The notes beneath the pieces were generated by a model. It was given only the letters and a program-made list of their open reading frames with translations. It had not been told where the DNA came from and searched no databases. Positions 5,630-32,721 of a stretch of 64,000 nt of DNA are shown in pieces. Made by a program: the position numbers and the translations under genes. The stretch is from Candidatus Latescibacterota bacterium (lineage in GTDB: Bacteria > Latescibacterota > UBA2968 > UBA8231). The stretch is from contig OZ220089.1 in NCBI GenBank assembly GCA_964291625.2, forward strand, positions 1,504,001-1,568,000. Reading direction: 5' to 3'. How positions within the stretch are numbered: the stretch's first letter is position 1; every line of letters starts with the position of its first letter.

Positions 5630-5644
5630 GCACCAACGCCTGGC

Positions 5645-5668
5645 ATGATACTGATAAGTCATTATCAT
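5645..5668. promoter_or_regulatory. Fur/Zur-type box
   Basis: AT-rich inverted repeat ATGATACTGA-TAAG-TCATTATCAT upstream of hisI-fur-COG0523. Confidence 0.75.
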
Positions 5669-5683
5669 TTAGCTGGCAAGTCG

Positions 5684-5843: not shown

Positions 5844-5892
5844 AACCTGGCAACGACGCACTCCACCCAAACACCCGGGCAGGTCAACCACA

Positions 5893-6732
5893 TTGCCTCA
5901 ATCTGACCCGATCCTCTGGAGTGTCGACCCGATCCTCTTCCAGGTCGGTCCGCTCACGATCAGGCACTACGGAGTCCTCTTCGCGCTCTCGTTCTTCATC
6001 GGACACAACATCATCCGTTCCGTCTTCCGGCGAGAGGGCAAGCCGGAATCCGATCTCGCAACGCTCCTGACGTACATGTTGATCGGCACGACCGTGGGCG
6101 CGCGCCTCGGTCATTGCCTCTTCTACGACCCGGGATACTACCTCGGCAATCCGCACAGGATGCTGATGGTGTGGGAAGGCGGGCTCGCCAGCCACGGTGC
6201 CGCGATCGGCATTCTGACCGCGCTGTTCGTCTACGCCCGACGCCACCCCGATCAACCGTATCTGTGGCTGCTCGATCGGATGGTCATTGTCGTCGCCCTC
6301 GCAGGACTGCTGATCCGGCTCGGGAACTTCCTCAACTCGGAGATACTCGGAATCCCCACCGATCTCCCCTGGGCCGTCGTCTTCGACCGGATCGACGATA
6401 CCCCGAGACATCCCGCACAACTCTACGAGTCGATCGCCTACGGAATGATCTTCGTGGGGTTGTATCGACTCTACATCCGGCTCGAAGCCCGAACCCCGCG
6501 AGGGTTCTTGTTCGGCCTCTTCCTCGTCTCCGTCTTCGGGTTCGGGTTCCTCATCGAATTCGTCAAAGAACGACAGGCGGCGTATGGCGCGGACCTTGCT
6601 CTCAGTGTCGGTCAGATCCTCAGCATACCGCTGGTCATCCTCGGAATCGCACTCCTGGCAAGGCCGCTGCGCAATGGCCTCTCCAGGCCCGATTCGGTTG
6701 ATGCAGCTCACCGGGCTGCCGCCGGCGTGTAG
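5893..6732 (+). CDS. lgt: Prolipoprotein diacylglyceryl transferase
   Basis: GARLGH, GGLASHG, IRLGNFLNSEI, RHPAQLYE. Confidence 0.95.
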   Translation: MPQSDPILWSVDPILFQVGPLTIRHYGVLFALSFFIGHNIIRSVFRREGKPESDLATLLTYMLIGTTVGARLGHCLFYDPGYYLGNPHRMLMVWEGGLASHGAAIGILTALFVYARRHPDQPYLWLLDRMVIVVALAGLLIRLGNFLNSEILGIPTDLPWAVVFDRIDDTPRHPAQLYESIAYGMIFVGLYRLYIRLEARTPRGFLFGLFLVSVFGFGFLIEFVKERQAAYGADLALSVGQILSIPLVILGIALLARPLRNGLSRPDSVDAAHRAAAGV

Positions 6733-7262
6733 GGCTCGATCGACTCGACGTCCATCGAGTAGCCGGAACTGACATCGAGGAGGGAGTCATAGCCGTCCTC
6801 AGCAAGCTCGCTCGTACCGTGACCCGTCTTCAGGCGGCCGGAGATCCAGACCGGGCGCCACATCTCCTGCAGCTCATGGGCCTGCTCGAGGCTGCAGCGG
6901 ATGACCTGGTTGGCCGGCGGCGGCGGGGTGTGCAGACAGGCCCCAAGATAGGGCACCAACAGGAATTCGCGGATCCGTGCCTCTTCGTATTCCAGGGGCA
7001 ATACGTAGCCCGGAATCCTGACCGTCTGGCCATCGAGCTCCTCGATCACCGGCGCCTGGTCGAGCATTTCCTGGGCCTTCTCCTGCAACGCGAGGTACTC
7101 TTCGTCGCTGAGTGCGGCGTACTCCTCGTCGCTGAGCTCATCGAAGGCGGCGTAGGGATTCCAGTCCTCGGGAACGAGCTGGTCCCACAGGATCTCGCGC
7201 GGTGGGTCCGAGGCGGCTGCGCTCGTGACGAGCAGCAACATGAGCAATCGTTGGCGAGACAT
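6708..7262 (-). CDS. DUF3299 periplasmic protein of the Zrg/PA4063-66-type zinc ABC system
   Basis: Signal peptide; W..LVP, IPGYVLPL, EFLLVPY.GAC.H.PPPP.NQ; alternative start at 7268. Confidence 0.88.
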   Translation of the reverse strand: MSRQRLLMLLLVTSAAASDPPREILWDQLVPEDWNPYAAFDELSDEEYAALSDEEYLALQEKAQEMLDQAPVIEELDGQTVRIPGYVLPLEYEEARIREFLLVPYLGACLHTPPPPANQVIRCSLEQAHELQEMWRPVWISGRLKTGHGTSELAEDGYDSLLDVSSGYSMDVESIEPYTPAAAR

Positions 7263-7303
7263 GGGCATGGTCCTCCCGATCTGCGACGGAGAGTGTCCCG
7301 CGC

Positions 7304-8545
7304 TCACAGACGGGTCGACAGTCCGTCGGCGAGCGAGTTCCGGTAACAGCGCCAGGCCGGCACCAGGCCGGCGAGCAGGCCGGCGGCCATCAGACCGCCG
7401 AGGAGCGGCCATTCGCCCGCGGTGGGCAAGCCGATCGGCAGGAGCAGGCCGAAGCGCTCGACGATCCAGGGCTGCAGGGCCCTCAGCGCCATGCTCTGCA
7501 TCGCCACTCCCAGTACGATACCGAGCAGTGTCAGCAGCGCTGACTCCATGATGAGCAGCTCCATGACGTGGCGGTAGCCGGCGCCGACCGAGCGCAGCAC
7601 GGCCATTTCGCGCCGGCGTTCGTTGAGTCCCGCCAGCGAGACCGCCAGCAGGCCCGCCAGCGCCGCGGCTGCCACAAGGATCGAGACGATCCGCAGCGCC
7701 TGCTCGCCGGTGCGCATCAGGTCCCAGAGTTCCTGCAGCGCCACGCCCGGAAAGATGGCGAGCAAGGGTTCGGCGCCGTACCGATTGATGTCGCGCTGCA
7801 GCTTGAAGGCGGCGAGTCGGTTGTCGAGGCCGAGGAGGAAGGCGGTGATCTGGCGCGGGGTCAGGTCCTGACCGCGAGCCCGCCGGAGATCGGTCTCGAC
7901 GCGGTTCCAGTTCATGTGCATGGCCTCGATCCCCGCGAGGCCGACGTGAACGGTGCGGTCCACGGGCGTGCCCGTCGGCACCAGGATGCCCGTGACCTTG
8001 AACGGGTGGTTGTCGTGGTCGCCGAAGCCTTCTGTCCCGATGCCGTGGGTGACGACCAGTTCGTCGCCGAGCCGGTACCCGAGCTTGCGCGCCACTTCTG
8101 CGCCGAGGACGGCATCCAGCGTCTCGGCGAAGGGTCCACCTTCCGCAAAGCCGAGACGACGCTTGTCGGCGTAGCGGAAGTGCTCGAAGTAGCCGGTAGA
8201 GGTGCCCATGACGCGGTAACCGCGGTGCGAATCGCCGAGGGAGATCGGGATGGCCCAGCGGACGCCGGGCCAGGTCGCGATGTCCGAGTAGCTGGACCAG
8301 GCGACATTGCTCGTGGCGTTGCCGATGCGAAAGACCGAGTAGAGCAACAGCTGCACCGAGCCGCTGCGGGCGCCGACGATCAGGTCGGTACCGGAGACGG
8401 TGTTGGCGAAGCTCAGGCGCGCGTGGGAACGGACCTTCTCGACGCCGAGCAGCAGCGCCACGCTGACCGCGATCGTCAGGACGGTCAGGGACGCCGTATC
8501 GCGCCGGTTCAGCAGACTCTTCCAGGCCAGACGCAGCACGTTCAC
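7304..8545 (-). CDS. ABC permease (MacB/FtsX-like), Zrg-type
   Basis: DLIVGARSGSVQLLLYSVF, PISLGDSHRG, ERRREMAVLRSVGA; GTGA overlap with the ATPase. Confidence 0.92.
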   Translation of the reverse strand: MNVLRLAWKSLLNRRDTASLTVLTIAVSVALLLGVEKVRSHARLSFANTVSGTDLIVGARSGSVQLLLYSVFRIGNATSNVAWSSYSDIATWPGVRWAIPISLGDSHRGYRVMGTSTGYFEHFRYADKRRLGFAEGGPFAETLDAVLGAEVARKLGYRLGDELVVTHGIGTEGFGDHDNHPFKVTGILVPTGTPVDRTVHVGLAGIEAMHMNWNRVETDLRRARGQDLTPRQITAFLLGLDNRLAAFKLQRDINRYGAEPLLAIFPGVALQELWDLMRTGEQALRIVSILVAAAALAGLLAVSLAGLNERRREMAVLRSVGAGYRHVMELLIMESALLTLLGIVLGVAMQSMALRALQPWIVERFGLLLPIGLPTAGEWPLLGGLMAAGLLAGLVPAWRCYRNSLADGLSTRL

Positions 8546-9243
8546 GGGCGAGCCTCGGCTCGGAATTCGTCGATGTCGACGGTACGGTCGAAGCGCGCCG
8601 CGAGGGTTGGATCGTGACTGGCGAAGACCAGCGTCGCCCGCGACGCCTGAACCTGCTCGAAGAGCAGCTCGATGAAGCGCGCTCGTGCATCGAAGTCGAG
8701 TGCCGAGGTCGGTTCGTCGGCAATCACGATCTCGGGATCGCCGATCAGGGCTCGCGCCGCGGCTACGCGCTGCTGCTGGCCGACGGAGAGCCTGGACACC
8801 GGTGCCGTCCGGTCCAGCTCCTCCTCGACGAACAGGCGCCGCAGCAGCAACCGCGCGGCCGCGGTCACGCCACCGTGCGCCTCGGCCGCGCGCGCGGCTC
8901 GGCGCCGGGAGAAGTGGCAGGGCAGGACGACGTTCTCGGCCAGGTTGAGGTAGGGGACCAGGTTGAACTGCTGGAAGATGAACCCGATGTGGTCGGCACG
9001 AAGTCGGTCGCGGGCGGCCGCGGCCAGCGAGCCCGTATCCCGCCCCATCAGCGACAGGCGGCCCGAATCCGGCGTCAGTACTCCCGCCACCAGGTTCAGC
9101 AGCGTCGACTTGCCGCTGCCCGAGGGACCGCGGACATACAGGTGTTCGCCGCGTCGCAGGAGGAAGCGGTCGCAGCCGAGCAGGGGCGCGGCGCCGGGCC
9201 AACCGAAGCGCAGGCCCTCGATCTCGATGAGCTCTTCGTTCAC
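8542..9243 (-). CDS. ABC ATPase, Zrg-type
   Basis: GPSGSGKS, LSVGQQQRV, ADEPTSALD. Confidence 0.95.
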   Translation of the reverse strand: MNEELIEIEGLRFGWPGAAPLLGCDRFLLRRGEHLYVRGPSGSGKSTLLNLVAGVLTPDSGRLSLMGRDTGSLAAAARDRLRADHIGFIFQQFNLVPYLNLAENVVLPCHFSRRRAARAAEAHGGVTAAARLLLRRLFVEEELDRTAPVSRLSVGQQQRVAAARALIGDPEIVIADEPTSALDFDARARFIELLFEQVQASRATLVFASHDPTLAARFDRTVDIDEFRAEARP

Positions 9244-9263
9244 GTCGGGCGTCGGCTCGCGTG

Positions 9264-9929
9264 CTATCTCAAACTGATCACCGGGTCATCCGCCTTGGCA
9301 ACGCCACCGAACTGGCCGTCCGGCGTCAGGGCCTGCACGCGGATCTCCTCGATTCGCGGCCAGTACTCGAAGAGACGAACCCCGATCGTCCCGATGGCTG
9401 ATCCGTTGCACTCGCAGCGGTAGCGTGCATGGAACTCGGAGTGCGTCTCCCCCTCCTCGCCGGCCTCTCCGTCCTCGTCGCCGTCATCGTGTCCGGAGTC
9501 CGTGCCGTCCTCTTCCTCGACGGCCTGTCCGTGCTCGTCGCCGTGGTCCTGTGCGGCTTCATGTCCGATGTGCGCGCCGTGCTCGTCCTCGTCCTCGTCC
9601 TCGTCATCAGCGCCGCGTCCATGACCTCCGTGCTCCACTTCCGCGACATGCAGGCTGCAGCTGGCCGCAAGGGGCAGGTCGAACAGCTCGTTGCCTTTCC
9701 TCAGCTGTTCGATCGCATCCCGGATCGCTCGACGCTCGGCGGCGGTGACCGCTTCGTGCTCGAAGCCGACGATGTTGCCGGCCGGTGACACGAACTCGAT
9801 CTCGAGTTCGTCGGCTTCCATGGCCAGGTTGAGGGTTGCGATCCCGTGAACGTGTGCGGACTGCTGAGCTGCCGTCACGCCGGTCAGCATCAACAGGAAG
9901 GCAACGACGGGCAGAGATCTGTGGATCAT
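9264..9929 (-). CDS. DUF2796/ZrgA-like periplasmic zinc-binding protein
   Basis: Signal peptide; AHVHG, SPAGNIVGFEH, His/Asp/Glu-rich loop, HSEF.A.Y. Confidence 0.9.
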   Translation of the reverse strand: MIHRSLPVVAFLLMLTGVTAAQQSAHVHGIATLNLAMEADELEIEFVSPAGNIVGFEHEAVTAAERRAIRDAIEQLRKGNELFDLPLAASCSLHVAEVEHGGHGRGADDEDEDEDEHGAHIGHEAAQDHGDEHGQAVEEEDGTDSGHDDGDEDGEAGEEGETHSEFHARYRCECNGSAIGTIGVRLFEYWPRIEEIRVQALTPDGQFGGVAKADDPVISLR

Positions 9930-10092
9930 ACGGCTCCTCCTCCGAGCGGGGCGCAGTCACAGTGGCGGAGATCAGGACGACGGACGCGCGAGCAGGCGCG
10001 CTTCTGCAACTCCGTCGGCGCGTGAGAAGCAGGCCCTGCAGCGCCGACGGAAGGGTGAATGAGCATAGACACGGTGCCGGCCTTCGCAAGCC

Positions 10093-19553: not shown

Positions 19554-20975
19554 CTAGCAGGCCGTTGATAATGTCACGTTTTGGCACACGTTCGGTCGAT
19601 CTGAGTGGAAGAGGCGCCGAGGGATGAGAAATCGTCGATCCCGGGCCCAGGTGAGGAAGGGGCCTCCGGCGCGACCCGAGAGGCCCCGAGCGGCTTGCCG
19701 CCACGCCTGGAAGAGCCCAAGAACCGCCCCCCGCGCCCGCAGACCCCTCGGGGTCCCGCAACCGGTGAGCTTCCGCATGGCCAGGCCCAGATTGAAGGCG
19801 CTGCCATGAAGGCTCAGCCGCTTGGAGATGTTGGCGTGGCCCCGCAGGGGCGTCCGCCGCAGACCCCCGCTTTCGTAGGTGTGAGCGAAACTGCGTTCCG
19901 CGCACTCGGCCCGACGCCGTTGCAGGGCGCGGCCTCGGGCCCCTCGAATCCGGCGTCGGTTGGCATACACGGCGGCCTGGGCGTCCCGGTCCTTCCACCG
20001 GCGGCGCCCGCGGTCGGGCTCGGACTGGTAGCCGCGGATCCGGGCGCGCTTCAACATCTTGGTCGTGTCGTTGCTGTGATACCCTTTGTCCGTCACCACT
20101 TCCGACATCGGTTGGCCATGCAGATGTTTCTTGGCTGTCGGATCCTGCGACACGGCCTGCAGATTCAGGTCGCTCTGGATCAGCGTCCAAGACAGCGATG
20201 CCGTGTCTCCCACGTCGGCGCCGGTCACCTGGGTGGCCACCAGGGCCTGGGTGTCCAGATCGACCGCGTGCTCGACCTTGTGTGCCAGGTGGGTCCGCCC
20301 GTCCTTCATCTTGGTGATGCGGGCCTCCGGGTCGTGGGGATGCTGCCAGTCCTGGTTGGAGCCTTTGCGCGGCCGCTTCTTGTCGAGCCGGGCCACGTCC
20401 TGGCGCGTCGGCGTCTCGATCCCTTCGGCCCGGGCCAGCTCCTCCAGGTACTCGCGGTAGCCTTGCCCGGTGTCCCGCCGCACGACGCTGCGCAGGGCGG
20501 CGTTGGCCTCCAGGGTCGTGGCGTCCACCGCCAAGGTCTTGCCCTTCAGGAGCCCTTCCTTGGCCAGCACGGTCAGCACCCAGTTGAACACCTCTTGGTA
20601 GACCTCCGGCGGCAGACGCTGACGAATGCGCGTCAGGCTCGAGTGATCGGGCGTGGCCTCGCTCAAGGCGTAGCCCAGAAACCGCCGCAGCGACAGCGAG
20701 TCGGCCACCCGCCAGGCGATGCCCCGCTCCGAGCCCAGGCCCTCGAAGTAGCCGATCAGGAGCATGCGAAAATAGACCCCCGGCGCGATGCTCGGCCGGC
20801 CCAGCTTCTCCGCGTAATACGGCGCGCACCGGGATTCCACAAACCGGTCAAATCCATGCGCCGCCAGCAGCTGATTCAGTTGCGTATAGAACGGACACCC
20901 GGGCGCCTCCGGCAGCGTGTGGGTCGGCACCCACATCTCCTGTTGCTGACTCTCGGGTCGTCGACTCATCGACAT
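19554..20975 (-). CDS. Transposase (IS1182-like)
   Basis: GRPSIAP, SERGI, TPDHSSL, DATTLEANA, TDKGY, ERSFAH; stop codon supplied by the CTAG target. Confidence 0.9.
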   Translation of the reverse strand: MSMSRRPESQQQEMWVPTHTLPEAPGCPFYTQLNQLLAAHGFDRFVESRCAPYYAEKLGRPSIAPGVYFRMLLIGYFEGLGSERGIAWRVADSLSLRRFLGYALSEATPDHSSLTRIRQRLPPEVYQEVFNWVLTVLAKEGLLKGKTLAVDATTLEANAALRSVVRRDTGQGYREYLEELARAEGIETPTRQDVARLDKKRPRKGSNQDWQHPHDPEARITKMKDGRTHLAHKVEHAVDLDTQALVATQVTGADVGDTASLSWTLIQSDLNLQAVSQDPTAKKHLHGQPMSEVVTDKGYHSNDTTKMLKRARIRGYQSEPDRGRRRWKDRDAQAAVYANRRRIRGARGRALQRRRAECAERSFAHTYESGGLRRTPLRGHANISKRLSLHGSAFNLGLAMRKLTGCGTPRGLRARGAVLGLFQAWRQAARGLSGRAGGPFLTWARDRRFLIPRRLFHSDRPNVCQNVTLSTAC

Positions 20976-21018
20976 CGATCCGGCTCCTTGGGTACGTGGC
21001 CTATGCCGAATCTAGAAA

Positions 21019-22382
21019 GGCTCATCCGGGATTACTGTGGGTAGCCCCAACATGTTGTGGTCTCGGATAGAGGTCGAGTCCGCCGCAATGGAAGTAGATG
21101 GCGGTCTGGAAGTTCGTGCGGTTGCGATAGCCGCGGGCCAGGCGCTTGACCTTTTCCACCTGCGCGTTCACCGCCTCGTTGAGGGCGTTGGTGATCCGGT
21201 GGCGCAGGTAGGTCAGGATGTTGTCCAGCCGCCGCTTCAGCGTGCGGGCCACGGCGATCACCGGCGGCAGACGGCTGTGGGTGGCCCAGAAGTACCAGCG
21301 CCGGAAGAAGCGACGAGCCCACCCTTCCCGGCGGTAGGTCCACAGCTGGCGCAGATTCTCCTTCAGGGCCCAGGCGCGGCTGACCTGCAGGTCCATGGCC
21401 CGCAACGCCTCGAACCGGGGCAGCAGGGCCTCGGGGATCCGGTCGGGGTGGTAGAGCCAGAGGTATTTGGTCCCCGTGAGCACCTCGTCCTGCTGGGCCC
21501 GCAGCTTCTTGTGCTCCTGGCGGCGCACCCGGTCGACGGCCTCGTTCATCAGTCGCAGGACGTGGAACTTGTCGAACACGATCTTGTCCCCGGCGTCGGG
21601 CACCCAGGCTTTCACGGCCGCGATGTAGGGGTCGTGCATGTCCAGGCAGATGGCCTCGATCCGCTTCAACTCCTGTTCGTCGAAGGGGAGGAAATACTCC
21701 TCCAGGCTCTCCCGTCGACGACCGTCGGCCACGTGTTCCACGCTCTTGGTTTCCAGGTCGCAGACCAGGGTCATGTACTGGTGGCGCTTGGCGAAGGCCT
21801 TCTCGTCGACGCCGAGATGGACCGGCACCCTCCACACCTTGCGGCGCTGGCCCCGGCGAACGGCGCCGGCCAGGACGCTCGAACAGCGATCCCAACTGAG
21901 CCCGGTGAGGCGGCTCACCGCCTGCAGGCTGCACTCCTTGGCCAAGTCGATGACGCGGGCCTCCAGGGCCCGGGTCAGACCCGAGCCGGGCTCGGCCCAC
22001 TCGGAAGCGATGGAGAGCACGACGTGGACCCGGCACTGGACCCGGGGCAGGCGGGTATGGACGTAGGTCGGCCGATCGCAGGTGTCCAGATGGCGCCATT
22101 CCCGCTCGGGGGCGTGGTCGTAGACGGGACACCAGGCGTCACAGCGGGGACAGCGCATCTTGACGCCGCGCTCATGGTCCACGTAGACATCGACCCGCTC
22201 CCGGTCCTGGAACCGCACCTCGAGCACAATCCAAGGGCGCTCGATTCGCAGCAGATGGGCATAGAACTGCTTGAGGTCGTCCATGGACGGCCCTCCCCGA
22301 TGGCGGTGGCAAGGGACTGCGAGACTCGGTCCCTATGATACCACAACATCTTGGGGGTCCCCACTCTCAACCCGGATGAGCC
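21019..22382 (-). mobile_element. ISL3-family IS
   Basis: TIR GGCTCATCCGGG; 8-bp TSD TCTAGAAA. Confidence 0.93.
21022..22284 (-). CDS. ISL3 transposase
   Basis: CPRC..YDH...WRHLD, GVDEK, DKFHV, TNALNEAVN...RGYRN. Confidence 0.93.
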   Translation of the reverse strand: MDDLKQFYAHLLRIERPWIVLEVRFQDRERVDVYVDHERGVKMRCPRCDAWCPVYDHAPEREWRHLDTCDRPTYVHTRLPRVQCRVHVVLSIASEWAEPGSGLTRALEARVIDLAKECSLQAVSRLTGLSWDRCSSVLAGAVRRGQRRKVWRVPVHLGVDEKAFAKRHQYMTLVCDLETKSVEHVADGRRRESLEEYFLPFDEQELKRIEAICLDMHDPYIAAVKAWVPDAGDKIVFDKFHVLRLMNEAVDRVRRQEHKKLRAQQDEVLTGTKYLWLYHPDRIPEALLPRFEALRAMDLQVSRAWALKENLRQLWTYRREGWARRFFRRWYFWATHSRLPPVIAVARTLKRRLDNILTYLRHRITNALNEAVNAQVEKVKRLARGYRNRTNFQTAIYFHCGGLDLYPRPQHVGATHSNPG

Positions 22383-22962
22383 TCTAGAAAAGACCGGTAC
22401 GAGGGGACAATCGTCCCCTCCCCCATCCGCGCCTTTTTCAACGGACTGCTAGGTCCGGATCGTCCGCTGACTCGACGGTTCCTCCTGCCTTCGACCAGGA
22501 CCACCTCATCTCTTCCGCGTCGTCAGGGTCGATCAATCTCCCTGTGATGACCTGCCCTTGAACCGGAGGATCGGCGTTGTCCAGGGAGATCTCTCCGACG
22601 GTGTTCTGCTTGAGAGTCACGGTGACGGAGTAGGCCTCCGTGGAGGCATGGGTCGCCGTGCTGCCGTTGACGCCCACGGTGTATACGTTAGCGTCGGGGT
22701 CCGTTTCATTGTAGTCCGGTCGACTACTCGTGAAGGTCAGGTCGCCGTTGTCGTCGATCGCGAAATATCCATCGGAGTTGGAGCTCAGTCTCCAGGTCAC
22801 GTCCGATATACTCTCGCCGTCGGAAGTCTCTGCCGCGTACCGGCCAAATGGCCCGCGACCATCCTTGGTAGTAGTCGAGAGTCGTCGGGCCGCGGATGAC
22901 CAGCGCTTGCACGGTAGTCAGTCTCGGCTGGAGAGGAGCGGTGGGCTCGCTCTGGGCGGTAA

Positions 22963-23051
22963 GGCTTTGTCACGAATCAACTGAACTACTGCGGGGCGCC
23001 CTTCGGTCGGCGGAACCTCGACTTATGACTCGTTTATTTGTTCGCGGAGCC
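22963..23051. mobile_element. 89-bp MITE, copy 1
   Basis: GGCTTTGTCACGAA...TTCGCGGAGCC; TAA TSD; near-identical inverted copy at 53589-53677. Confidence 0.88.
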
Positions 23052-24801
23052 TAACCTTCGCCACTGGATGCGCATCGTCGTTGTAGGTCACTGTGGCTCT
23101 GTACTTCCTGTTCAGATACCTGTCGTCGTCTGGCGTAAAGGTGTTGGTGATTTCCCCGTCCACATAGTCACCCGGCCGGCCCTCCATTGTGATCTCCTGC
23201 CATCTCCACCCCACCCTCCTCGGATTATCGCGGTCGTTGAAGGTCGCAACGATTGGCGTGCCAATCCTTGGCGGATCGCCTGTCTGGAGCGTCACGGTGC
23301 CTCGAATGTTCTTCTTGACGTCCACAGACACGTCATAGGACGTTCGACGCTGTGGGTTGATGGTCGCCACGACATCAATGTCGTACGTCCCTGCTGGGGT
23401 GCTGGCTGCATCCGCAAGGGTCAGGCTGCCCTCGTCATCGATGGCAAAGTAGCGGTCGTTGTTGTTGGTCAAGGACCACTCGACGGAGGCTCCTCCGCAG
23501 GTCCCCTCCGGGACCGAGTACTGCCCCAGAGCATTGCCCCGGTGCGTCCAGTGGGTATAGCTGCTCTCCCCTCGACAACTATCGGCACGGGAGGGGCGGG
23601 GAAGTCCCGCGTATAGATGCCGCTCCACCGATAGTGCTCCTCGTCAATGTCACTGTCGCGATCGGCCTTCGTGTCCCTGATGCAGTCGGATTCGCTTCGG
23701 ATGCAGTGACCTGCCTTGACAGCCAGGGTGTAGGTCCTGCCGGGAGACATGGGCCACTCCTCCACTTGGCCCGGTCTCCACCACCTGTCATAGGGGTCGA
23801 CATCGATGGAATCAATAGCCTCCCAGAATTCCACACCCCGCGGCTTCCAGGTGCCTGAGGAGGGGATGTGCTGCTGGGGGTCTCCGCCATGACAGTCTAC
23901 CGAATTCACTTTGAGGAATACCATCGAAATGGGAGGGTTCTGGTCTTGCTCGCCTCCCAATTTGATTGCCACTTTGGCGCGGCTGTTGCTAAGGCATCGC
24001 GCAGAAATAAACGCTGTTCTTTTTGATGGAGGGGTGTTATCTTTGAAGCGTGGACACGGAGAGCACCCTGCGGGCGAAATGCGAAGCCCTGGCGCCGATG
24101 TTGAACGAGCGCACCCGGCGCTTGTGGGCCGCGTCGGAGGCGCAAGCCCTGGGGCATGGCGGCATTGCCGTGGTGGCCCGGGCGACGGGCCTGTCGCGGA
24201 CCCGGATCGCTCGCGGCCTGCAGGAACTGCGGTCGGACGCCCCCCCGGCCGTGTGCGCCGACCGGGCGGCGGCCGCAAGCGGCGCGTCGATACCGACGTC
24301 ACGCTGTTGTCGGACCTCAACGCCCTGGTCGAGCCGGTCACCGCCGGGGCGCCGGACGACAGTCCCCTGCGATGGACGTCGAAGAGCACCCGCAAGTTGG
24401 CGGTCGAGTTGCAGGCCTTGGGCCATTCGGTAAGTCCTCGCCTCGTCAGCGGACTGTTGCACGAGCTCGGCTACACGCTGCAGGCGAATCGCAAGACGAG
24501 AGAAGGCACCCAACACCCGGATCGGGACGCCCAGTTTCACTATCTCAACGACCAGGTCCGAAGGGCCCAGGCCCAAGGCCAGCCGGTCATTTGTCAAGGG
24601 ACACCCAGATTCGCGCAGTTAGGGGACACCCAGATTCGCGCACCCCGGATGGTCGGGGTTGGTGGTACCGGATCGGTTTCCCTCCCTCCGGAGGTGAGGC
24701 GTGGCACCGGGCGCGGGGGTCTTCAATGCACCCCGGGGCGGAGCCCCCGCTCCCACGAAGGGCCCCTCTTCGAAGAGGCCTGGCGGTGAACGACGTACGG
24801 G

Positions 24802-25581
24802 TCATCGGTCCTGGGCGAGCTGCTGCTCCATGTCCCGGAGGCGGAAGCTGCGGCCGTCGATCTGCAGTACATGGCAGTAGTGCAGCAGGCGGTCCAGGAT
24901 GGCCGTGGCCAGGACCTCGTCGCCGGCCAGCATCTCCGGCCATTCGCGGATGCTCTTGTTGGAGGTGATCAGGGTGCTGCCGCGCTCGTATCGATGGTTG
25001 ATGACCTTGAACAGCAGGTGGGCCTGGTGCCGGTCCAGGGCCTGGAAGCCGAGCTCGTCGATGATCAGCAGACTGGTGGTCATGTACTTGCGCCGGTGCA
25101 GCCGCGAGCCGTCGGCGGTTTCGTCGCGGCGGACCACGTCGACGAGGTCGTCGGCGCTCATGAAGGCCACGGAGAAACCGTTCTGCACCGCCTTGACGCC
25201 CAGCCCGGCCGCCAGGTGGGACTTGCCCACGCCCGGGGGGCCCAACAACAGCACCACCTCCTTGCGGCGCACGAACTCGGAGGTAGCCAGCAGGTCGATC
25301 TGGCTCTTGTCGACGCTGGTCTGGAAGGCGAAGTCGAAGGTGTCCAGGGTCTTGCCTCCTGGCAGGCCGGAGAGCTTGAGGCCGGTGCGCACGCGGCGCT
25401 CCTCCCGCGACTCCTGCTCCCGCTGGCAGACCAGGTGCAGGAACTTGGGCAGGCTCAGCTCTTCCTTGACGGCCCGCTCCAGCAACTCCGGCAGGCACTG
25501 GGACACCCACTCCAGGCCCAGGTGCGTCAGCAGGGTGCGGGTGTCGTCCAGCTCGCTCTGCGAGGGGGGACGGGCGGCCAT
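24802..25581 (-). CDS. istB: IS21 helper ATPase
   Basis: GPPGVGKSHLA, LLIIDELG, RYERGS..ITSN, AILDRLLH. Confidence 0.93.
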   Translation of the reverse strand: MAARPPSQSELDDTRTLLTHLGLEWVSQCLPELLERAVKEELSLPKFLHLVCQREQESREERRVRTGLKLSGLPGGKTLDTFDFAFQTSVDKSQIDLLATSEFVRRKEVVLLLGPPGVGKSHLAAGLGVKAVQNGFSVAFMSADDLVDVVRRDETADGSRLHRRKYMTTSLLIIDELGFQALDRHQAHLLFKVINHRYERGSTLITSNKSIREWPEMLAGDEVLATAILDRLLHYCHVLQIDGRSFRLRDMEQQLAQDR

Positions 25582-26882
25582 CAGCCCCGCCTCCCGGCGC
25601 GTTCCACCAGCGCCGCGTAGCCGTCGAGGGGCCGAGTGGGCGCCTGCCAGTCCCAACTCTTGGGCAGCACGATCTGCTGGGCCAAGCGCCCCAGGGGCGT
25701 GGGCGCCTCGAGATGATCCGGCGGCGCCCCCTCGTAACAGCGTTGATCGATGAGACGGCGACAGGCCGTATGGCGCGGATAGCTCATCACACAGCGGTCC
25801 TCGACGTAGATCTCGACCGTGGCGGCGCAGCCGCGCACCTGCACGGCGCGGCCCACCCAGGCGAAGGGCACGCCGTATTCGCGGCCGTCGAAGCGCACCA
25901 AGCCGTCGCGGCCCACGTCTCGCTGCACCTGCGTGTCGAAGGGGGTGGGCAAGGTTTCCGGCAGCGGCGCCAGGTGAGGCCGCTCCACCTGCCAGGACTC
26001 GGCCACCGACTGGCCGGTCAGCGGACAGCGCAGGCGCTCGGCCGACTCGAGCACCCGCAGATCGGACGCCGTCTGCAACTCGGCCAGGGTCTCGAAGCGC
26101 TCGTTGCGCCGGATCAGATTCCAGCGCACATCGCGCACCCGCCGCTCGACCTTGCCCTTGTCGGTGGGCCGGCGGATCCGGCAGGCGTCCGGCACGAAGC
26201 CCAGCGGCCGGGCGTAGGCGGCGTAGTCGTCGTTGAGGATCGCCCACGGCCCGCCGCGGCGGACCACGGCGGTCTTGCAGTTGTCGAAGCGCACGCTCCA
26301 GGGCACCCCCTGTACCGCCTCGAAGGCGCGATTGTGCGCCTCCTGCCAGGACAGCTGGCCCTGGTCGAGCCGCCACTGCACCGACCACATGCGCGAAAAG
26401 CTGAGCGACAGGCTGAAGGCGCTCAGCCGCGTGCGACCACCCAGCTCGCGCACCTGCACCCAGGGCTCGACCCAGTCCACCTGCGCCTGGCTGCCCGGCC
26501 GCACCTCCACCCGACGCAGCGGGCGCACCTTCGGCGGCGGCCGGCGTCGCCGCACATAGCGGGCCACCGCCTTGTAGGTCCCCCGGTAGCCGTGCTCGCG
26601 GACCAGGGTGTCGTAGAGGGCCCGCACCGGCTCCGGCCGCTGGCCCTCTTGCACACGCTCTTGCTGTCCCTGGATCCACGCCTGAATCACCCCGTCATGG
26701 GCCGAACAGGCCTCCGGCTTGCACCGACGGCCGTCCTCCGCCCCCTCGGCTCGACGCTTGAGCCGGTAGCGAAGGGTGCTCTCGGCGACCCCCAACTCCT
26801 GGGCCGCCGAGCGAACGCTGTGACCGCACTCGGCGGTCAGGACTTGCGCACACACCAGATCTCTCTCCCGCAACTTGGTCAT
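25581..26882 (-). CDS. istA: IS21 transposase
   Basis: PG.QAQVDW, FDNCKTAV, KGKVER. Confidence 0.93.
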   Translation of the reverse strand: MTKLRERDLVCAQVLTAECGHSVRSAAQELGVAESTLRYRLKRRAEGAEDGRRCKPEACSAHDGVIQAWIQGQQERVQEGQRPEPVRALYDTLVREHGYRGTYKAVARYVRRRRPPPKVRPLRRVEVRPGSQAQVDWVEPWVQVRELGGRTRLSAFSLSLSFSRMWSVQWRLDQGQLSWQEAHNRAFEAVQGVPWSVRFDNCKTAVVRRGGPWAILNDDYAAYARPLGFVPDACRIRRPTDKGKVERRVRDVRWNLIRRNERFETLAELQTASDLRVLESAERLRCPLTGQSVAESWQVERPHLAPLPETLPTPFDTQVQRDVGRDGLVRFDGREYGVPFAWVGRAVQVRGCAATVEIYVEDRCVMSYPRHTACRRLIDQRCYEGAPPDHLEAPTPLGRLAQQIVLPKSWDWQAPTRPLDGYAALVERAGRRG

Positions 26883-27814
26883 GCCCGGCCCCCTTGCCTG
26901 AGGAACGATTCCTCCAAGGATGGCGCCGAGCGACGGATCGCGGGGTGCGCGAAAGTAGATGTCCCTTAAGAGCGAAAATCGGTGGATTCCTTACATCATT
27001 TCGGTGGACACCAAGAAGAAGGAGCTGATCGGCGACTTCAAGAACGGGGGTCGAGCCTGGCGTCCGAAGGGCGATCCGGAACGCGTGAAGGTCCACGACT
27101 TCCTCATCCCCACCCAGGGCAAGGCGATTCCCTACGGGGTCTACGACCTGAGCCGCAACGAGGGCTGGGTCAGCGTTGGGGTCGACCACGACACCGCCCA
27201 CTTCGCGGTGAACACCATCCGCAGCTGGTGGCAACGCATGGGACGCCCGGCCTACCCGGCGGCCTCGCACCTGTGGATCACGGCCGATGCGGGGGGCAGC
27301 AACGGCCCGAGACTGCGATTGTGGAAATGGGAATTGCAGCGCTTTGCCGATCGCACGGGCCTGACGATCACCGGCTGTCACTATCCTCCGGGCACGAGCA
27401 AGTGGAACCGCATCGAGCATCGCCTGTTCTCCTATATCGCCAAGAACTGGCGAGGCCAGCCGTTGGTCAGTCTGGCCACGGTGGTCAACCTGATCGGCCG
27501 GACGACCACGACGAAAGGGCTTCGAGTGCGCTCGGAGATCGACAAGCGATCGTATCCCAAAGCTGTGGTCGTCAAGGACGAGCAAATGGAGCGGATCGAT
27601 CTCTTGCCGCATGAGTTTCACGGGGACTGGAACTACACGATCCGGCCCACATCGGCCAGCCGAAGTGAATCATCTGTTTCGTGACAAAGCCCTAGTCCTC
27701 CCTGTAGGATAGCTGTATGGAGGGATTTTCTTGCCTACTGAACTACCTGCTACACTTCTAAATGCTCTTTGAACTGATTCCGCGGCCGGATTGTTGAAGA
27801 AGTTCTTCGACCCA

Positions 27815-27982
27815 TCAAATTAACGAGGAGAAATGTGATGGAATTTCCAGCACCGTAATCGTTTGGAGGAAGGGTGTTTCTGCTTTGTGGTCACGGCTGG
27901 AGACGCTAAGATTGAGAACCCTCTTTGCGTTCTCTCTGATGGCCTCGCGGCTCTCTTTGATGGCTTCGCTTAGGTCGGTCAT
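27815..27982 (-). CDS. Small ORF (55 aa) or frameshifted start of the shattered gene
   Basis: AAGGAG RBS 6 nt before ATG; MTDLSEAIKESREAIRENAKRVL. Confidence 0.35.
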   Translation of the reverse strand: MTDLSEAIKESREAIRENAKRVLNLSVSSRDHKAETPFLQTITVLEIPSHFSSLI

Positions 27983-28092
27983 GTATAACTCCTTGAGTTA
28001 AGGTTATTTCAGCGGAGGAGAAGAAGGGAAGGGACCTCCCAAGGGAAGGCACCAGAGGTCCCCGGATCAGCCCCTTCTCCCCCTCCGATCAA

Positions 28093-28626
28093 TCAGGGGT
28101 CGAGGATCTTCGTCCTCGTGCAGTTTGGTTCAGGATTCACCCACTCCCCGTCATAGTAGTAGGTGGTCCCGTTCTTGTCCTCCGAGTCGTTGGAGATCAG
28201 CAGTGCGTCGTTGTGGCACTTGATCCCCGCCGCGGAGAAGTCGAACGTTGCGCACTCGGCTACGGCATCCCCTCTTTCCCATACGTCGTCAGGGCAGTCG
28301 GATTCCTTGGACGTGCACTGAGGCTCGTATCTCGGGTCCCCGTCGAGGCGGGCGATAACCTCGGTGGTTGTCCACTCTCTGGTGTGGTAGTGGTAGTACA
28401 GAGCTTTGCCCCGGCCCACTCCGTCGTGCGGCACCGGGAGCACCTTGTACACGTCTTTCCGCTCCCACCGGGTGTCTATCACGGTTTGAGACGGGAACTT
28501 GCAGCCCCAGCAGTCATACAGCTTCTTGGGCGTCCCGATCCTGTGCTTGTAGCCGTGTCCCTCGGCCTCCTTGACCGCCAGCCCCAGGACCGCGACCACC
28601 AGCCCGACGACGATAGTGATTCTCAT
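28093..28626 (-). CDS. Secreted Cys/His/Tyr-rich protein; predicted mature N-terminus His-Gly
   Basis: Signal peptide ending AEG|HG; HYHTREWTT; paralogue of 29223-29732. Confidence 0.8.
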   Translation of the reverse strand: MRITIVVGLVVAVLGLAVKEAEGHGYKHRIGTPKKLYDCWGCKFPSQTVIDTRWERKDVYKVLPVPHDGVGRGKALYYHYHTREWTTTEVIARLDGDPRYEPQCTSKESDCPDDVWERGDAVAECATFDFSAAGIKCHNDALLISNDSEDKNGTTYYYDGEWVNPEPNCTRTKILDP

Positions 28627-28647
28627 GCTTTCCTCCCTGCGAGTGAG

Positions 28648-29226
28648 TTAGAACGAAAAGAACGCCTCAGTCCTCGCCCCTCCTAAAGCAAGGCTAAAGA
28701 TGGTTCGCACGATGTCTCGGCCGTCCCTGGGCCGGTTCATCCTGGTGTAACGCAAGGACACTCCTTTCTGAGTCCGCAGGCCGACCCGGTTGAAGGGCCT
28801 CCAGGCTACCCCGATCCCTGTTCCGCACCCCAAAATCAAGGTGCTGCCCTTTAGCTCTCCTTCGCTGGTGTGTCGGCTACTCCTTTCGGATAAGCTGACG
28901 AACCAGAAGGGTTTGATTTTGCCCTTGCCCTCCCGGTAGCGGTGGTGGATCAGGCTTATCTCTGCGCTGACCCTACCGGCTTCGAGGTCTCCGATCTCCT
29001 CTTTCACCCACTCCCCTTCTGGCCCCGTGGTGACCTGTGATACCTCACCCTGGCTGCTGGAGATCAACCCTCCTATTTCCAGTCCCCAGGCCGAGCTACC
29101 GCTGCTCCTCCAGACGCTGACCTTGTCCATGTCAGGTACGGTCAGCCCAAGAGCATACTTATCCTCCGGCTCGGCATCGGCCCAGGTGAAGGCCAATGCC
29201 GAGCCTACGAAGATGAGCCTTTTCAC
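28648..29226 (-). CDS. Putative small outer-membrane beta-barrel
   Basis: GTG start overlaps the upstream stop; short signal; alternating beta strands; ends in AFFSF. Confidence 0.65.
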   Translation of the reverse strand: MKRLIFVGSALAFTWADAEPEDKYALGLTVPDMDKVSVWRSSGSSAWGLEIGGLISSSQGEVSQVTTGPEGEWVKEEIGDLEAGRVSAEISLIHHRYREGKGKIKPFWFVSLSERSSRHTSEGELKGSTLILGCGTGIGVAWRPFNRVGLRTQKGVSLRYTRMNRPRDGRDIVRTIFSLALGGARTEAFFSF

Positions 29227-29732
29227 GAGGTCTTGCGCACATACCAGCAGGGGTAGTAGTGGTGGTAATAGTAGTAGTCGTAGCCGGAGATTCCGTCGTC
29301 CACGGGCAGGTAGGTTTCTTCCGGGTAACCGTCCTGGCAATTCGTGTCGTTGTAGAAGCAGTAGCCGAGGGAGTTCCCATACGGCTTTTTGACCTTCTCG
29401 TCCGCGCACTTGCTCTCCCACACGTCACAGTCGTAGGAGTAGCGGGGGTGGGGATAGGTGAAGTCCTGGGAGGTTGTCCACTCGGATACGTGGTAGTGGT
29501 TGACCGGATTGACGGCCTTGCTGTGGGTGTCGCCGCCGGGGTCCTCGCTGTACAGGTTGGATCTCTTCCAGGTGGTTGTCACCCGGTAGATGGAGAGCCC
29601 GCTTACGCAGGCCTCTCTTTCTCCGATCTTCTGCTTCTCCCCCTTCCTGACCAGTGATCCGTGCCCGTAAACGTCACTGACGATCAGGACGCATCCGAGC
29701 AGAAGGAGTCCCGCCAAAATCTTGCAGCGCAT
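29223..29732 (-). CDS. Secreted Cys/His/Tyr-rich protein; predicted mature N-terminus His-Gly
   Basis: Signal peptide ending VYG|HG; HYHVSEWTT; AAGGAG RBS. Confidence 0.8.
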   Translation of the reverse strand: MRCKILAGLLLLGCVLIVSDVYGHGSLVRKGEKQKIGEREACVSGLSIYRVTTTWKRSNLYSEDPGGDTHSKAVNPVNHYHVSEWTTSQDFTYPHPRYSYDCDVWESKCADEKVKKPYGNSLGYCFYNDTNCQDGYPEETYLPVDDGISGYDYYYYHHYYPCWYVRKTS

Positions 29733-29872
29733 GATTCTACTCCTTGAGAGGAGCCCACTCGTCAGTGAGCTTCTCGATGATGAAGAATTTTGCCTCGAAA
29801 GACTTGCTGATCTCCGAGGCGGATTTGCGGCACTTGTCGATGGTGCCGCATGCTAGGGGTCTCTGCGGAACG

Positions 29873-31442
29873 TGTCAATGCGAATGAGACACTTCGGTTG
29901 ATAGTTTACTGTCCTCCTTCGGCTCGCATTCGATGGTCTTCGGAGGCGGGTTGATCCACACTTCGGCCGGGAGTTCGGGCGCCTGGGGCGGCCCCTGGAC
30001 GAAGCGCTCGGGATGGCGTGCGTAGGCGTCCTCGAGGACGCGTTGCCGTTCGGCCTGGAGCGAGCCGGCCCGGCCTTGATGGACGGCTTCCGGGGTCAGC
30101 AGGCCGAGTCCGCTGTGGCGATGTTGGGTGTTGTACCAGGGAAAGAACGAGCGGCAGTAGGTTCGAGCCTGCTCCGGGTCGGCAAAGCGGCCCGGGTAGG
30201 TGCGGGCGTATTTGACCGTTTTGAACTGACTTTCCGAATACGGGTTGTCGTCGGCGGTGCGCGGCCGGCTGTAGCTGGCCCGGATGTCGAGATCGACGAG
30301 CAGCTGCGAGAAGCTCTTGGCCGTCATGGGGGCGCCCCGGTCCTGGTGCAGGGTCAGTTGCCCCGGCGCGATCCCTTGCCGGTGGCAAGCGGCCTCGACC
30401 AGGCGCCGGGCGCGGCCGGCGCTTTCCCCGGTGGCCACCATCCAGGCCACGACGTAGCGCGAAAACAGATCCAGCACCACGTAGAGCGGATACGTCTCCC
30501 CTCGACGCGGACCGGCCAGGCGGGTGATGTCCCACGTCCAGATCTGGTTGGGGGCCGTGGCCACCAGCCGCGGCGGCTCGGCCCGGGGGTGGCGGCGTTG
30601 GCGGCGACGTTCCCGCACCTCGCCGGCGTCGTGCAGCAGACGATACATCGTGCGCACAGAGCACAGGTAGCGGCCTTCCTCCAGCAGGCTCGCGTAGACG
30701 GCGGCCTGACGGCGGCCGGGGCCTGATCGACGAACCGGTCTTCGTGCAGGGTCGCCAGCACCTGGGCGCGTTCGGCCGGCGCCAGGGCGCGAGGCGAACG
30801 GCGCGGGGCCGGACCCGGCCGGGCCCCCGGCCGCTGGCGGTGCCGGTAGATCGAGGCCCGGGGCACCCCCAGAGCCCGGCACGCCGGCGCCACCCCGACC
30901 AAGGGCGCCAACTGTTCGACCGCGGCTCTCATTCGTCGTCGGCGTTGGCGGGCCGGTTCAGGGGGATCCCCAGGATCTCGGAGGCTTTTTTTGGATCTCG
31001 AGAATCGCCTGGGCCTGCGCCAGACGCCGCTGCAGGCGGGCGTTCTCCTGGCGCAGCCGCTCGTTCTCGCGGGCCACCGGGTCGCGGCGACGGCCCTGGG
31101 GCCCCCGGGGTTTGGCCAGGGCCTGCAACGAGCCTTCCCGGCGCGCCCGCCGCCAGGCGGTCAGCTGCGAAGAATACAGGCCCTCGCGGCGCAGCAAGGC
31201 GCCGACCTCGCCCGGCGCCCGGCAGGCCTCGGCTTCTTCCAGGATCCGCAGTTTGTATTGGGCACTGAAGCGACGGCGCTTGGCCCTCTCCGGCACTTCC
31301 GAATCCGGAGCGGGCGCCGCCTTGGAGGGCCCTCCAGGGACCCTGGCTCCCTTCGACCATTGTCCGTGCTCATCCTTGCTCTCCTTGCCGCCCTCCAACA
31401 ATACTAAACTCGGATGGCAAAGTGTCTCACTCTATACTGGCA
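29873..31442 (-). mobile_element. IS3-family IS; orfAB slippery site, orfB broken by an 11-bp duplication
   Basis: TG...CA ends with GAGACACTT in both TIRs; A7G site at ~30985-30992; WTWDIT, HQDRG, DNPYSES; duplicated ggccgccgtc at ~30700-30720. Confidence 0.88.
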
Positions 31443-31730
31443 CGTAGGGCTGGTCGCCGACAACATCGTGCGCCTCGCGCGCCTGCTGTGCCGAACGCGG
31501 TACCAGCCTGCCGAAGGCCAAGCGAATCCTCTCGGCCTCCTCGGCTTTCCATTAGGAATAATACCCTACGGATATGTGATTCTTGTGTGCCTTCCGGGGG
31601 GGCAGGGGATGTTTTCTTGTGTGTCTCGGGCCTATTTTTCAAACGGATTCGACCCCTTCACCCCGAATCAGATCCCGGACCGAGGCGAGCAACATATGAG
31701 ACCTGCGGGCACCTTAGGCGATTGCTATAG

Positions 31731-32721
31731 CGGGGATTCGGGACGTATGCGTATATTTTCCAGTGACTTGCTGTCGGTGGCCGCCTCCCCCGCCGGCTCC
31801 CCCGCCTTGACGAAGGAGGGGGGCGATGACCGCGATTCTCTCTCTGGCGCCCTTTCAGCAGCGGCAGCTGTGGGAGCGCTTCCGAGATCACACGCACGAA
31901 GCCCTGGATGCGTTGCCGGATCGGCTGGAGGCGGGCATGACCCAACCCGACGGTCTCCCAAGAGCGCGCCGGACTCACCGCAGCCCTGGTGGAGGCCTTC
32001 GTCGAACGCCGCCATGGCCCGTGGCTGACGCAACAAGAGGCTGCTTGCCCGAGTGTGAGCGCCTCCTGCCCGCGCGTCCATCGCGCTCGCGCACGGTCGA
32101 GACGCTGCTCGGGCCGGTGACCTTGGAGCGTCCCTATTTCTACTGCCCGGCCTGTCACCACGGGTTCTATCCGCTGGACGAGGCCTTGGCCCTGTCGGGG
32201 CACCGCAAGCAGGGGGACGTGCAGCAGGCCGGGGTCAAGCTGGTGCTGGAGATGTCCCACCAGCGCGCCTCGAAGCTGTTGGACGAGCTCACGGACGCGT
32301 CGGTGAGCGACAGTGTGATTCACGGGTGCTGCAACAGACCGGGGCGTTGGACGTGCTGCAGGTGTGTCCGGACGCGGCCGACATCCAGGATCGCATTGCG
32401 CAAGCGGCCGCCGGCCGCAAGTGGCGGCCGATCGTGGTGTTGGCCATCGACGCGGCCGACGTGCCCAGTCGTCCCGAAACCGCCAAAGGGACGCGTCCCG
32501 GGCGCAAGAAGAGCCGGGCCCGGCGAAAGCGCTGGCAGGGGGAATACCGCGAGGCCAAGGGGTTTCGCTTCTACCTAGTCGACGAAGTGACCCTGGCCCG
32601 CCTGTTCTGCGGCGAGGCGACGGGCGTGGTCTGGGGTCTGCAGCGCATGCAGCCGGTCTCGGACGAGGCCGAAGAGGCGATCGGAACGGCCCTGACGTAC
32701 CTGCACAAGCGGCTGCACCAA
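31731..32721 (+). mobile_element. Degenerate ISKra4-like transposase remnant
   Basis: VETLLG.V.LERPYFYCPAC.HGFYPLDEAL, AIDAA, EAKG; frameshifts and deletions. Confidence 0.7.

Follow-up and report, generated by a model that had tools for sequence, protein, structure and literature searches.

The parA–parB cassette

The stretch of DNA analysed here, called the window throughout, comprises 64,000 nucleotides (positions 1,504,001 to 1,568,000) of contig OZ220089.1 from the Candidatus Latescibacterota bacterium assembly GCA_964291625.2. A compact three-gene unit lies on the minus strand of the window between positions 28017 and 29878. The first and the last gene of this unit, designated parA and parB, encode paralogous proteins with a His-Gly dipeptide directly behind a signal-type N-terminus. 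A third gene, referred to as the middle gene, is located between them. The unit reads parA, middle gene, parB and has the following features:

29732–29223, minus strand: parA (P0002), 169 amino acids (aa), with an AAGGAG Shine-Dalgarno sequence before the ATG
29226–28648, minus strand: middle gene (P0001), 192 aa, with a GTG start
28626–28093, minus strand: parB (P0003), 177 aa
29878–29850, minus strand: sigma-70-like promoter match TTGACA-17-TAGCAT, about 120 nt 5′ of parA and directly outside the end of an insertion sequence (IS) of the IS3 family
28040–28017, minus strand: terminator-like hairpin of 6 pairs with a T-rich tail, 53 nt beyond the parB stop

The TGA stop of parA and the GTG start of the middle gene overlap in the sequence GTGA, and the 21-nt spacer between the middle gene and parB carries a GGAGG Shine-Dalgarno sequence. 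An earlier note on this DNA, made from the sequence alone, had described an operon of two secreted paralogues around a putative β-barrel gene. The operon is supported by the open reading frames (ORFs), the GTGA overlap and the 192-codon ORF between the paralogues; the barrel identity of the latter is only probable. The promoter match agrees with the consensus at 10 of 12 positions and is a consensus match only; the region holds two matches of this quality, where 0.6 would be expected. The terminator-like hairpin is likewise a consensus match only, and sites of this kind do not exceed the shuffle expectation in the region. The note had seen an upstream gene cut at a CTAG, a description that does not hold. 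This CTAG sits inside the promoter-like −10 hexamer, and the end of the IS3 element and a frame without a start codon are found at this place.

The GC content at third codon positions is 0.75 and 0.83 in the two paralogue frames, which fits real genes of a high-GC host. The GC content of the region from 28 to 30 kb is 59%, compared with about 70% in the surroundings. The cassette is apparently a three-gene operon that was acquired by horizontal transfer. When the window was searched in six-frame translation with the family profile described below, only these two copies and the one candidate barrel gene were found.

The ParA and ParB proteins

BLASTP aligns ParA and ParB with 41 identical residues out of 134 (31%, E 1e-7). 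The two proteins of 169 and 177 aa are thus divergent paralogues of about 170 aa, as had been read from the sequence before. Both start with a 23-residue N-terminus of the signal type with typical n-, h- and c-regions, which is directly followed by His-Gly. The dipeptide stands straight behind a signal-peptidase-type site in both proteins (VYG/HG in ParA and AEG/HG in ParB), in agreement with the earlier note. The positions that matter most for the following are:

ParA residues 1–23 (...SDVYG), minus strand: signal peptide; predicted mature start His24-Gly25, His codon 29663–29661
ParB residues 1–23 (...KEAEG), minus strand: signal peptide; predicted mature start His24-Gly25, His codon 28557–28555
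29498–29490, minus strand: H79-Y-H81 of ParA
28392–28384, minus strand: H79-Y-H81 of ParB

The motifs that had been named as common to the two proteins are all present in their pairwise alignment: W-x-R, H-Y-H-x-x-E-W-T-T, P-R-Y...C....E-S-x-C, further cysteines and a YYY run. At the DNA level, the HYHxxEWTT stretch can still be recognised as a 36-nt direct repeat with 78% identity. Both paralogues retain every residue that is conserved in the family. Mature ParA contains six cysteines and is rich in tyrosine, with 19 Tyr in 146 residues (13%). The Tyr residues could serve redox hole-hopping, cross-linking or metal contacts. ParB has seven cysteines, of which six are at family-conserved positions and one is extra.

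The C-terminal end of mature ParA (29226–29663, minus strand) reads DYYYYHHYYPCWY. In ParB, the extra cysteine forms a thioredoxin-like CxxC string, C-W-G-C, with a family-invariant cysteine (residues 39–42, 28501–28512, minus strand); the extra cysteine is not conserved in the family. The signal peptide of ParA contains a lipobox-like string L-L-G-C (residues 11–14, 29691–29702, minus strand). Lipoprotein processing at this site was rejected, since none of the other 17 members of the family has the cysteine. The hydrophobic segment stands in front of the G/H site and not behind it, which led us to reject processing of the type IV pilin kind. Export by the twin-arginine pathway was dismissed on account of the missing twin-arginine motif consensus, and a Ni-hook as in nickel superoxide dismutase on account of the missing Cys at position 2 or 6. 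Complex prediction with mature ParA and ParB gave a score of 0.00, which, in a run that had no controls, gives no answer and speaks neither for nor against binding.

A rare and unnamed protein family

A profile built from the two paralogues was run with HMMER exhaustively over 1,835,955,588 representative proteins and matched 19 of them at E<=1e-3. These are the two queries, 16 relatives of 95–225 aa and one spurious protein, P0015. The latter (1648 aa) was dropped, as it contains an MG2 domain and matches only the profile positions 120–160. The 16 relatives, all from ENA/Logan assemblies, are unnamed and belong to clusters of 1–5 members. Four of them (P0009, P0014, P0017 and P0020) are fragments on contigs shorter than 1.1 kb, and some others are located on contigs that measure from 100 kb up to 1.4 Mb. 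The longer contigs carry P0010 (1.40 Mb), P0011 (600 kb), P0013 (562 kb), P0008 (99.8 kb), P0006 (29 kb), P0004 (18 kb) and P0019 (13 kb).

No known family was found for these proteins. Pfam gave no match for ParA, ParB or the middle protein at E<=1, nor at E<=10, and NCBIfam gave none for ParA and ParB. The profile search of the family against the Protein Data Bank (PDB) was empty at E<=10, and no match was obtained in PADLOC and PHROGs. For the whole set of 18 members, the only Pfam hit at E<=0.1 is weak (E 0.043), concerns one member and is unrelated. The earlier note had suggested an undescribed family, and the empty Pfam, NCBIfam and PDB profile searches agree with this, including the lack of a match to a known non-metal family.

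Other collections did not extend the family. A word-indexed search of 5.8 billion proteins recovered only parB itself among 90 candidates, and the same kind of search with the 18-sequence profile recovered only three relatives that were already known. A collection of 185,579 species-representative genomes, which does not include the genome of the window, was scanned twice by pattern and yielded no relative; the scans matched 6 and 156 stretches, none of which was confirmed by tblastn. No match was obtained in plasmids (tblastn with parB and P0004) or in phages (tblastn with parB). Keyword searches of open-access text did not retrieve a description of such a family. Judged from these sequence searches, ParA and ParB are members of a real, very rare and unnamed protein family. 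The sequence family, its predicted fold and the paralogue–barrel–paralogue layout have no counterpart in the libraries searched. N-terminal-histidine metalloproteins as a kind are already known.

Conservation of the predicted N-terminal histidine

Conservation was counted in the alignment of the 18 sequences. Around the predicted cleavage site the following was observed:

Position −3: A, V, T or I in 18 of 18
Position −1: Gly in 16 and Ala in 2, a small residue in 18 of 18
Position +1: His in 17 of 18, Ser in P0020
Position +2: Gly in 17 of 18, Glu in P0008

Further positions are given in mature ParB numbering. The two histidines of the H-x-H motif are conserved in 16 of 17 (H56) and 15 of 17 sequences (H58). 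C19 and S23 are each found in 17 of 18 sequences, an aromatic residue W/Y31 in 18 of 18, Y37 in 13 of 18 and Y77 in 14 of 17. The cysteines 81, 88, 102, 114 and 146 are each present in 14–15 of the 15–16 sequences that cover them. In signal-peptide proteins generally, the share with His at +1 is given as 2.6% (PMC12537917). The frequency of His-Gly in the aligned family sequences is far beyond chance. By the −3/−1 rule, we infer that the mature protein begins with this conserved histidine.

The profile that retrieved the relatives held the signal peptide and the His-Gly (HG) columns, and it was therefore rebuilt without them; the hits were rescored with the Z value of the whole library. This control profile finds seven relatives at E<1e-3 (P0004, P0005, P0006, P0007, P0008, P0009 and P0011), with His at +1 in seven of seven and Gly at +2 in six of seven. 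The remaining nine relatives lie above 1e-3 with the HG-free profile and still share the Cys/H-x-H pattern. The invariance of His1 in homologues, on which the earlier reading depended, thus comes to 17 of 18 overall and 7 of 7 when the HG columns are left out.

A maximum-likelihood tree was built from the 18 sequences, and in it ParB and P0006 form a pair (support 94/95). A clade of seven that holds ParB (support 82/86) excludes ParA, which is long-branched and has no resolved position. Since ParB groups with P0006 and not with ParA, the two genes did not arise by a recent local duplication. On this tree, ParA and ParB are anciently diverged copies.

Predicted structure of mature ParB

Mature ParB was modelled with AlphaFold2 together with 19 relatives. 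The best model has a mean predicted local distance difference test score (pLDDT) of 83.1 and a predicted template modelling score (pTM) of 0.51. It shows a short strand right after His1-Gly2 (residues 3–6), long strands at 11–20, 24–39 and 54–69, a low-confidence loop at 40–53, several short strands and a helix at 109–121. In blocks of ten residues, the average pLDDT across residues 11–40 and 61–80 is 91–97.

H56 and H58 are placed in the fourth strand (54–69). In a β-strand, the residues i and i+2 point to the same face, and the side chains of H56 and H58 would thus face the same side. If the strands 24–39 and 54–69 pair as a hairpin, Y37 would stand opposite H56 and W31 would lie on the same face; this register is our own reading of the strand order.

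Foldseek gave nothing significant among 350,542 PDB chains (best E 0.55, template modelling score <=0.23) or in BFVD (best E 0.075), and no hit of the lytic polysaccharide monooxygenase (LPMO), CopC or cupredoxin type is among the matches listed. The absence of LPMO fold motifs, which the earlier note had remarked upon, is in line with Pfam and Foldseek, both of which are without an LPMO match. The Atlas feature neighbours of ParB are Sushi-type cysteine-rich clusters only, with scores below 0.9, and were treated as noise.

The middle gene

On inspection, the N-terminus of the middle protein is signal-like, VKRLIFVGSALAFTWA/DAEPEDK (…AFTWA/DAEPEDK), and its C-terminus reads ...TEAFFSF, so that both a signal peptide and a C-terminal aromatic β-signal are present. 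The mature protein would have about 176 residues, of which 13% are Gly. Its neighbours in the language-model Atlas have scores of 0.97–0.98, and clusters carrying OMP_b-brl (34% of members), DUF3575 and TraO are among them. The ten best Atlas hits that bear a family all share one family or clan. No match to the middle protein was found by sequence in the PDB, and the word-indexed search returned only the protein itself among 200 candidates.

Judged by its Atlas neighbours, its signal sequence and the Phe at its C-terminus, the middle protein is probably a small outer-membrane β-barrel. In size, signal peptide and C-terminal aromatic residue, the protein resembles the small 8–10-strand barrels of the MBB clan (OMP_b-brl, DUF3575 and TraO; OmpX, OmpW and the N-terminal domain of OmpA). 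It differs from them in matching none of their hidden Markov models (HMMs) at E<=10. A TonB-dependent receptor and Lgt are encoded in the window, so the host is a diderm bacterium.

The earlier note had regarded the barrel as a possible dedicated exporter or anchor of the paralogues. To our knowledge, an 8–10-strand barrel cannot export a folded 17-kDa protein. With about 176 residues the middle protein is too small for this purpose, and the exporter was dropped. The size of the barrel makes an anchor, a docking site or a small-solute conduit the sensible reading.

Proposed function of ParA and ParB

We propose that ParA and ParB represent a new family of predicted N-terminal-histidine metal-binding or metal-handling proteins. 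Cu(II) is the most likely metal, and Ni or Zn are possible. To this proposal we would give an even chance of being right. It starts from the combination of a signal peptide, a near-invariant His1, an H-x-H strand and six cysteines, a pattern by which N-terminal-histidine metal sites are recognised. According to PMC12537917, a His that becomes N-terminal when the signal peptide is removed chelates metal whatever the fold. The first interpretation of the locus as a family of surface copper proteins or oxidases thus stands in part. The conserved His1, the second and third His provided by H-x-H and the lack of a known family speak for it, and the exporter and a link to a giant adhesin were given up.

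The proteins of the family would be exported by the Sec pathway and would have about 150 residues in the mature form, with six conserved cysteines that presumably form three disulfides. A cut by signal peptidase I before His-Gly would free the α-amino group of His1, which together with the imidazole could act as a chelate. His1 and the H-x-H motif on the long strand may then form a mononuclear transition-metal site, with Cu(II) as the likeliest occupant. The ligand set, one amine and three imidazoles, would be that of the CuB site of particulate methane monooxygenase (pMMO), for which PMC12576850 lists the amine and ND1 of His33, His137 and His139. Most likely, such a protein would capture, buffer or hand over the metal, either within the periplasm or on the surface of the cell. 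As its membrane partner, the co-translated barrel would serve as a docking site or small-solute conduit and not as a protein exporter.

Metal handling is favoured over catalysis because of what is described for other bacterial proteins. Signal strapping led to four bacterial families that are not related to one another; each of them bound Ni, Co or Cu and had little or no oxidase activity (PMC12537917). In a review (PMC10952591), bacterial derivatives of the histidine brace are mostly assigned to copper transport, and convincing redox activity is described as not shown for them. By analogy with these families (PMC10952591 and PMC12537917), metal handling is a likelier role than that of an oxidase.

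Few kinds of metal site can be recognised directly in a sequence. A His that signal-peptide cleavage exposes is one of them, and every new N-terminal-His family has so far proved to be a real metalloprotein. If ParA and ParB bind copper, they would provide a new scaffold for the histidine-brace class. A ligand set like that of pMMO CuB would then be found in a small soluble protein that is open to expression and spectroscopy. The cassette may also reveal a new module of two proteins and a barrel with which a high-GC diderm bacterium handles metal at its outer membrane. If the proteins turn out not to bind metal, the near-invariant His-Gly would itself require a new explanation.

Comparison with known N-terminal-histidine proteins

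LPMOs (AA10 and others) are likewise secreted and have a mature His-Gly N-terminus and a further conserved His; AA10 LPMOs usually start with HG. ParA and ParB differ from them in giving neither an LPMO_10 Pfam match (E<=10) nor a match to the Ig-like LPMO fold. Carbohydrate-binding modules or glycoside hydrolases are not found among the neighbours of the cassette.

The closest ligand pattern is that of the CuB site in PmoB and AmoB. In both cases a His that becomes N-terminal after cleavage is combined with H-x-H, and both are extracytoplasmic (PMC12576850 and PMC12537917). In sequence and fold, ParA and ParB are not related to PmoB and AmoB by Pfam, PDB or Foldseek searches. PmoB is a subunit of a membrane enzyme with a domain of the cupredoxin type, whereas ParA and ParB are predicted to be small soluble proteins of about 150 residues with six cysteines. 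No pmo or amo genes are located near the cassette.

CopC and PcoC are periplasmic as well, and their mature His1 chelates Cu(II) with an internal His or Asp in copper handling (PMC10952591). ParA and ParB have no match to CopC in Pfam, in the PDB profile search or in fold. CopC contains no cysteines of the ParA/ParB kind, and copA or copD is not found at the cassette. In cop and pco operons, the CopC or PcoC gene lies beside the gene of an outer-membrane barrel, CopB or PcoB. These barrels are much larger than the middle protein with its about 176 residues.

The families DUF4198, DUF6702, Ang-1 and Ang-2 from signal strapping show the same anatomy, a signal peptide followed by a conserved His (65–100%) and further His, and they have diverse non-LPMO folds and bind Ni, Co or Cu; DUF6702 was modelled with a tri-histidine site (PMC12537917). 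By Pfam, the 18 members of the ParA/ParB family belong to none of them. The ParA/ParB family differs in being cysteine-rich, far rarer and paired with a small barrel gene. Unlike ParA and ParB, the signal-strapping families are fused to a HupE/UreJ permease or located near TonB receptors.

Points against the proposal and alternative explanations

Several observations weigh against the metal-binding proposal. The neighbours of the cassette are IS elements, and neither a redox gene nor a gene for copper, nickel or other metal homeostasis is found near it. The nine relatives that are lost with the HG-free profile were detected in part through the signal and HG columns, and their His1 is therefore not independent evidence; in addition, P0020 departs from the family with Ser at +1 and P0008 with Glu at +2. 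Four of the five AlphaFold2 models reach a pLDDT of only 58–63, the pTM of even the best one is 0.51, and modelling with the two paralogues only gave a pLDDT of 33, which is unusable. For the barrel, no HMM of a barrel family matches the middle protein (Pfam E<=10), the single NCBIfam hit of 13 bits is noise, and a crude Kyte-Doolittle β-moment test did not set it apart from shuffled sequences, of which 180 of 500 attained the mean of the protein itself. The evidence for a partnership with the barrel comes from this single locus.

ParA and ParB might have no metal at all and be disulfide-rich secreted proteins with a structural, adhesive, signalling or antagonistic role. His-Gly would then be kept for processing, receptor contact or capping of the fold. 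This is unlikely in our view, with a chance that is large enough to be taken seriously. Metal binding is predicted here from sequence, the low-GC, IS-rich island that holds the cassette has no metal genes, and the family is tiny and patchy, as is often so for accessory or antagonistic genes. The member with Ser at +1 and the weak Sushi-type cysteine-rich clusters among the Atlas neighbours of ParB (<0.9) would also be compatible with such a role. However, signal peptidase I tolerates many residues at +1, and a near-invariant His together with H-x-H is hard to explain otherwise (PMC12537917). Toxin, defence and phage families in PADLOC and PHROGs gave no match either. Decay of the cassette is the most doubtful of the explanations. 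The three genes would be unexpressed cargo in an IS graveyard and have no current function in the host. The IS3 element, the split ISAzo13-type transposase gene, IS21, ISL3 and other gene fragments that flank the cassette, its GC content of 59% against about 70% around it and the start-less ORF remnant directly upstream would all agree with this. Against it, the three ORFs are all intact, parA and parB have Shine-Dalgarno sequences, the start of the middle gene is coupled, and promoter- and terminator-like sites are present. Both paralogues also keep the family-conserved residues at a third-position GC of 0.75–0.83.

The conservation of His1 and H-x-H that argues for metal binding would also fit copper redox enzymes, that is, oxidases, peroxygenases or monooxygenases with a histidine brace in a new fold and with a barrel that admits or presents a small substrate. 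We consider this quite unlikely. The histidines are accompanied by the conserved aromatic residues W/Y31, Y37 and Y77. Barrels of the AlkL/OmpW type admit hydrophobic molecules. ParA is Tyr-rich (19 of 146 residues), and chains of Tyr and Trp are described as protecting oxidative copper enzymes (PMC11087555); LPMOs show that the histidine brace can be a powerful oxidant (PMC10952591). On the other side, Pfam and Foldseek gave no match to an LPMO family or fold, and no carbohydrate-active, redox-partner or substrate-related gene lies nearby. In sites of the pMMO-CuB and CopC type, the fourth position is filled by a protein ligand and convincing catalysis is not reported (PMC10952591). Most of the bacterial His1 families characterised so far bind or transport metal and have negligible oxidase activity (PMC10952591 and PMC12537917). 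Very unlikely, in our estimate, is the more specific form of this explanation, in which a copper enzyme with a new-fold histidine brace would carry out oxidative chemistry in the envelope with a pMMO-CuB-like site, two specialised paralogues and a dedicated substrate-admitting barrel. If it were true, the disputed CuB site could be studied on ParA and ParB as a soluble and tractable model.

Surroundings of the cassette in the window

The cassette is located in an IS-rich stretch with nested insertions that extends from about 19.5 to 32.6 kb (19557–32575). The following elements were identified in this stretch:

19557–20975: DUF772/DDE transposase
21025–22284: ISL3 transposase
23911–24786 and 26959–27681: two pieces of an ISAzo13-type transposase gene, split by IS21
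24805–25620 and 25584–26882: IstB and IstA of the IS21 element
29874–29740 (listed 29737–29874), minus strand: start-less frame of 45 codons between the IS3 end and parA, closed upstream by the TGA at 29877–29875
29885–31429, minus strand: IS3-family element with orfA (31401–30958) and orfB (30882–29875), Pfam HTH_Tnp_1, rve and rve_3, directly 5′ of parA
31826–32575: ISKra4/UPF0236-like fragment

By reading of the sequence, the inverted-repeat ends of the IS3 element are approximately TGAGACACTT... at 31429 and ...AAGTGTCTCA at 29885. The start-less frame is either the remnant of an interrupted gene or a non-coding leader. An ORF of 55 codons (MTDLSEAIKE..., 27815–27982, minus strand) with an AAGGAG Shine-Dalgarno sequence is present between the terminator-like hairpin and the ISAzo13 fragment.

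Two ORF fragments of 120 and 201 aa (22438–23628, minus strand) carry cadherin-like modules of the form FAIDD.G.L. The 201-aa fragment is related to the repeats of a giant protein encoded further along the window (BLASTP E 2e-6). The two fragments appear to be what is left of another large repeat protein that was broken by IS elements. The giant protein and the genes of a likely zinc-limitation cluster have the following positions:

53975–60982, minus strand: giant protein of 2336 aa with FN3, cadherin and AIR9-type Ig domains
3359–4474, minus strand: CobW/ZigA-type GTPase
8545–9285, minus strand: ABC ATPase
9267–9956, minus strand: ZrgA-family zinc uptake protein

The earlier note had placed the cassette upstream of the giant adhesin. 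The two are 24 kb apart, with many unrelated genes and IS elements in between, and this link was abandoned. The likely zinc-limitation cluster (3359–9956, minus strand) is about 18 kb away from the cassette and has no evident link to it. Two large ORFs upstream of the giant protein (60807–62267 and 62186–63817) have no Pfam match. A tRNA gene lies near the end of the giant gene (53843–53920, plus strand; Rfam 44.2 bits), for which ARAGORN reports "tRNA-???" with the four-base anticodon "tacg". This suggests an unusual anticodon loop or a tRNA that is miscalled or degenerate.

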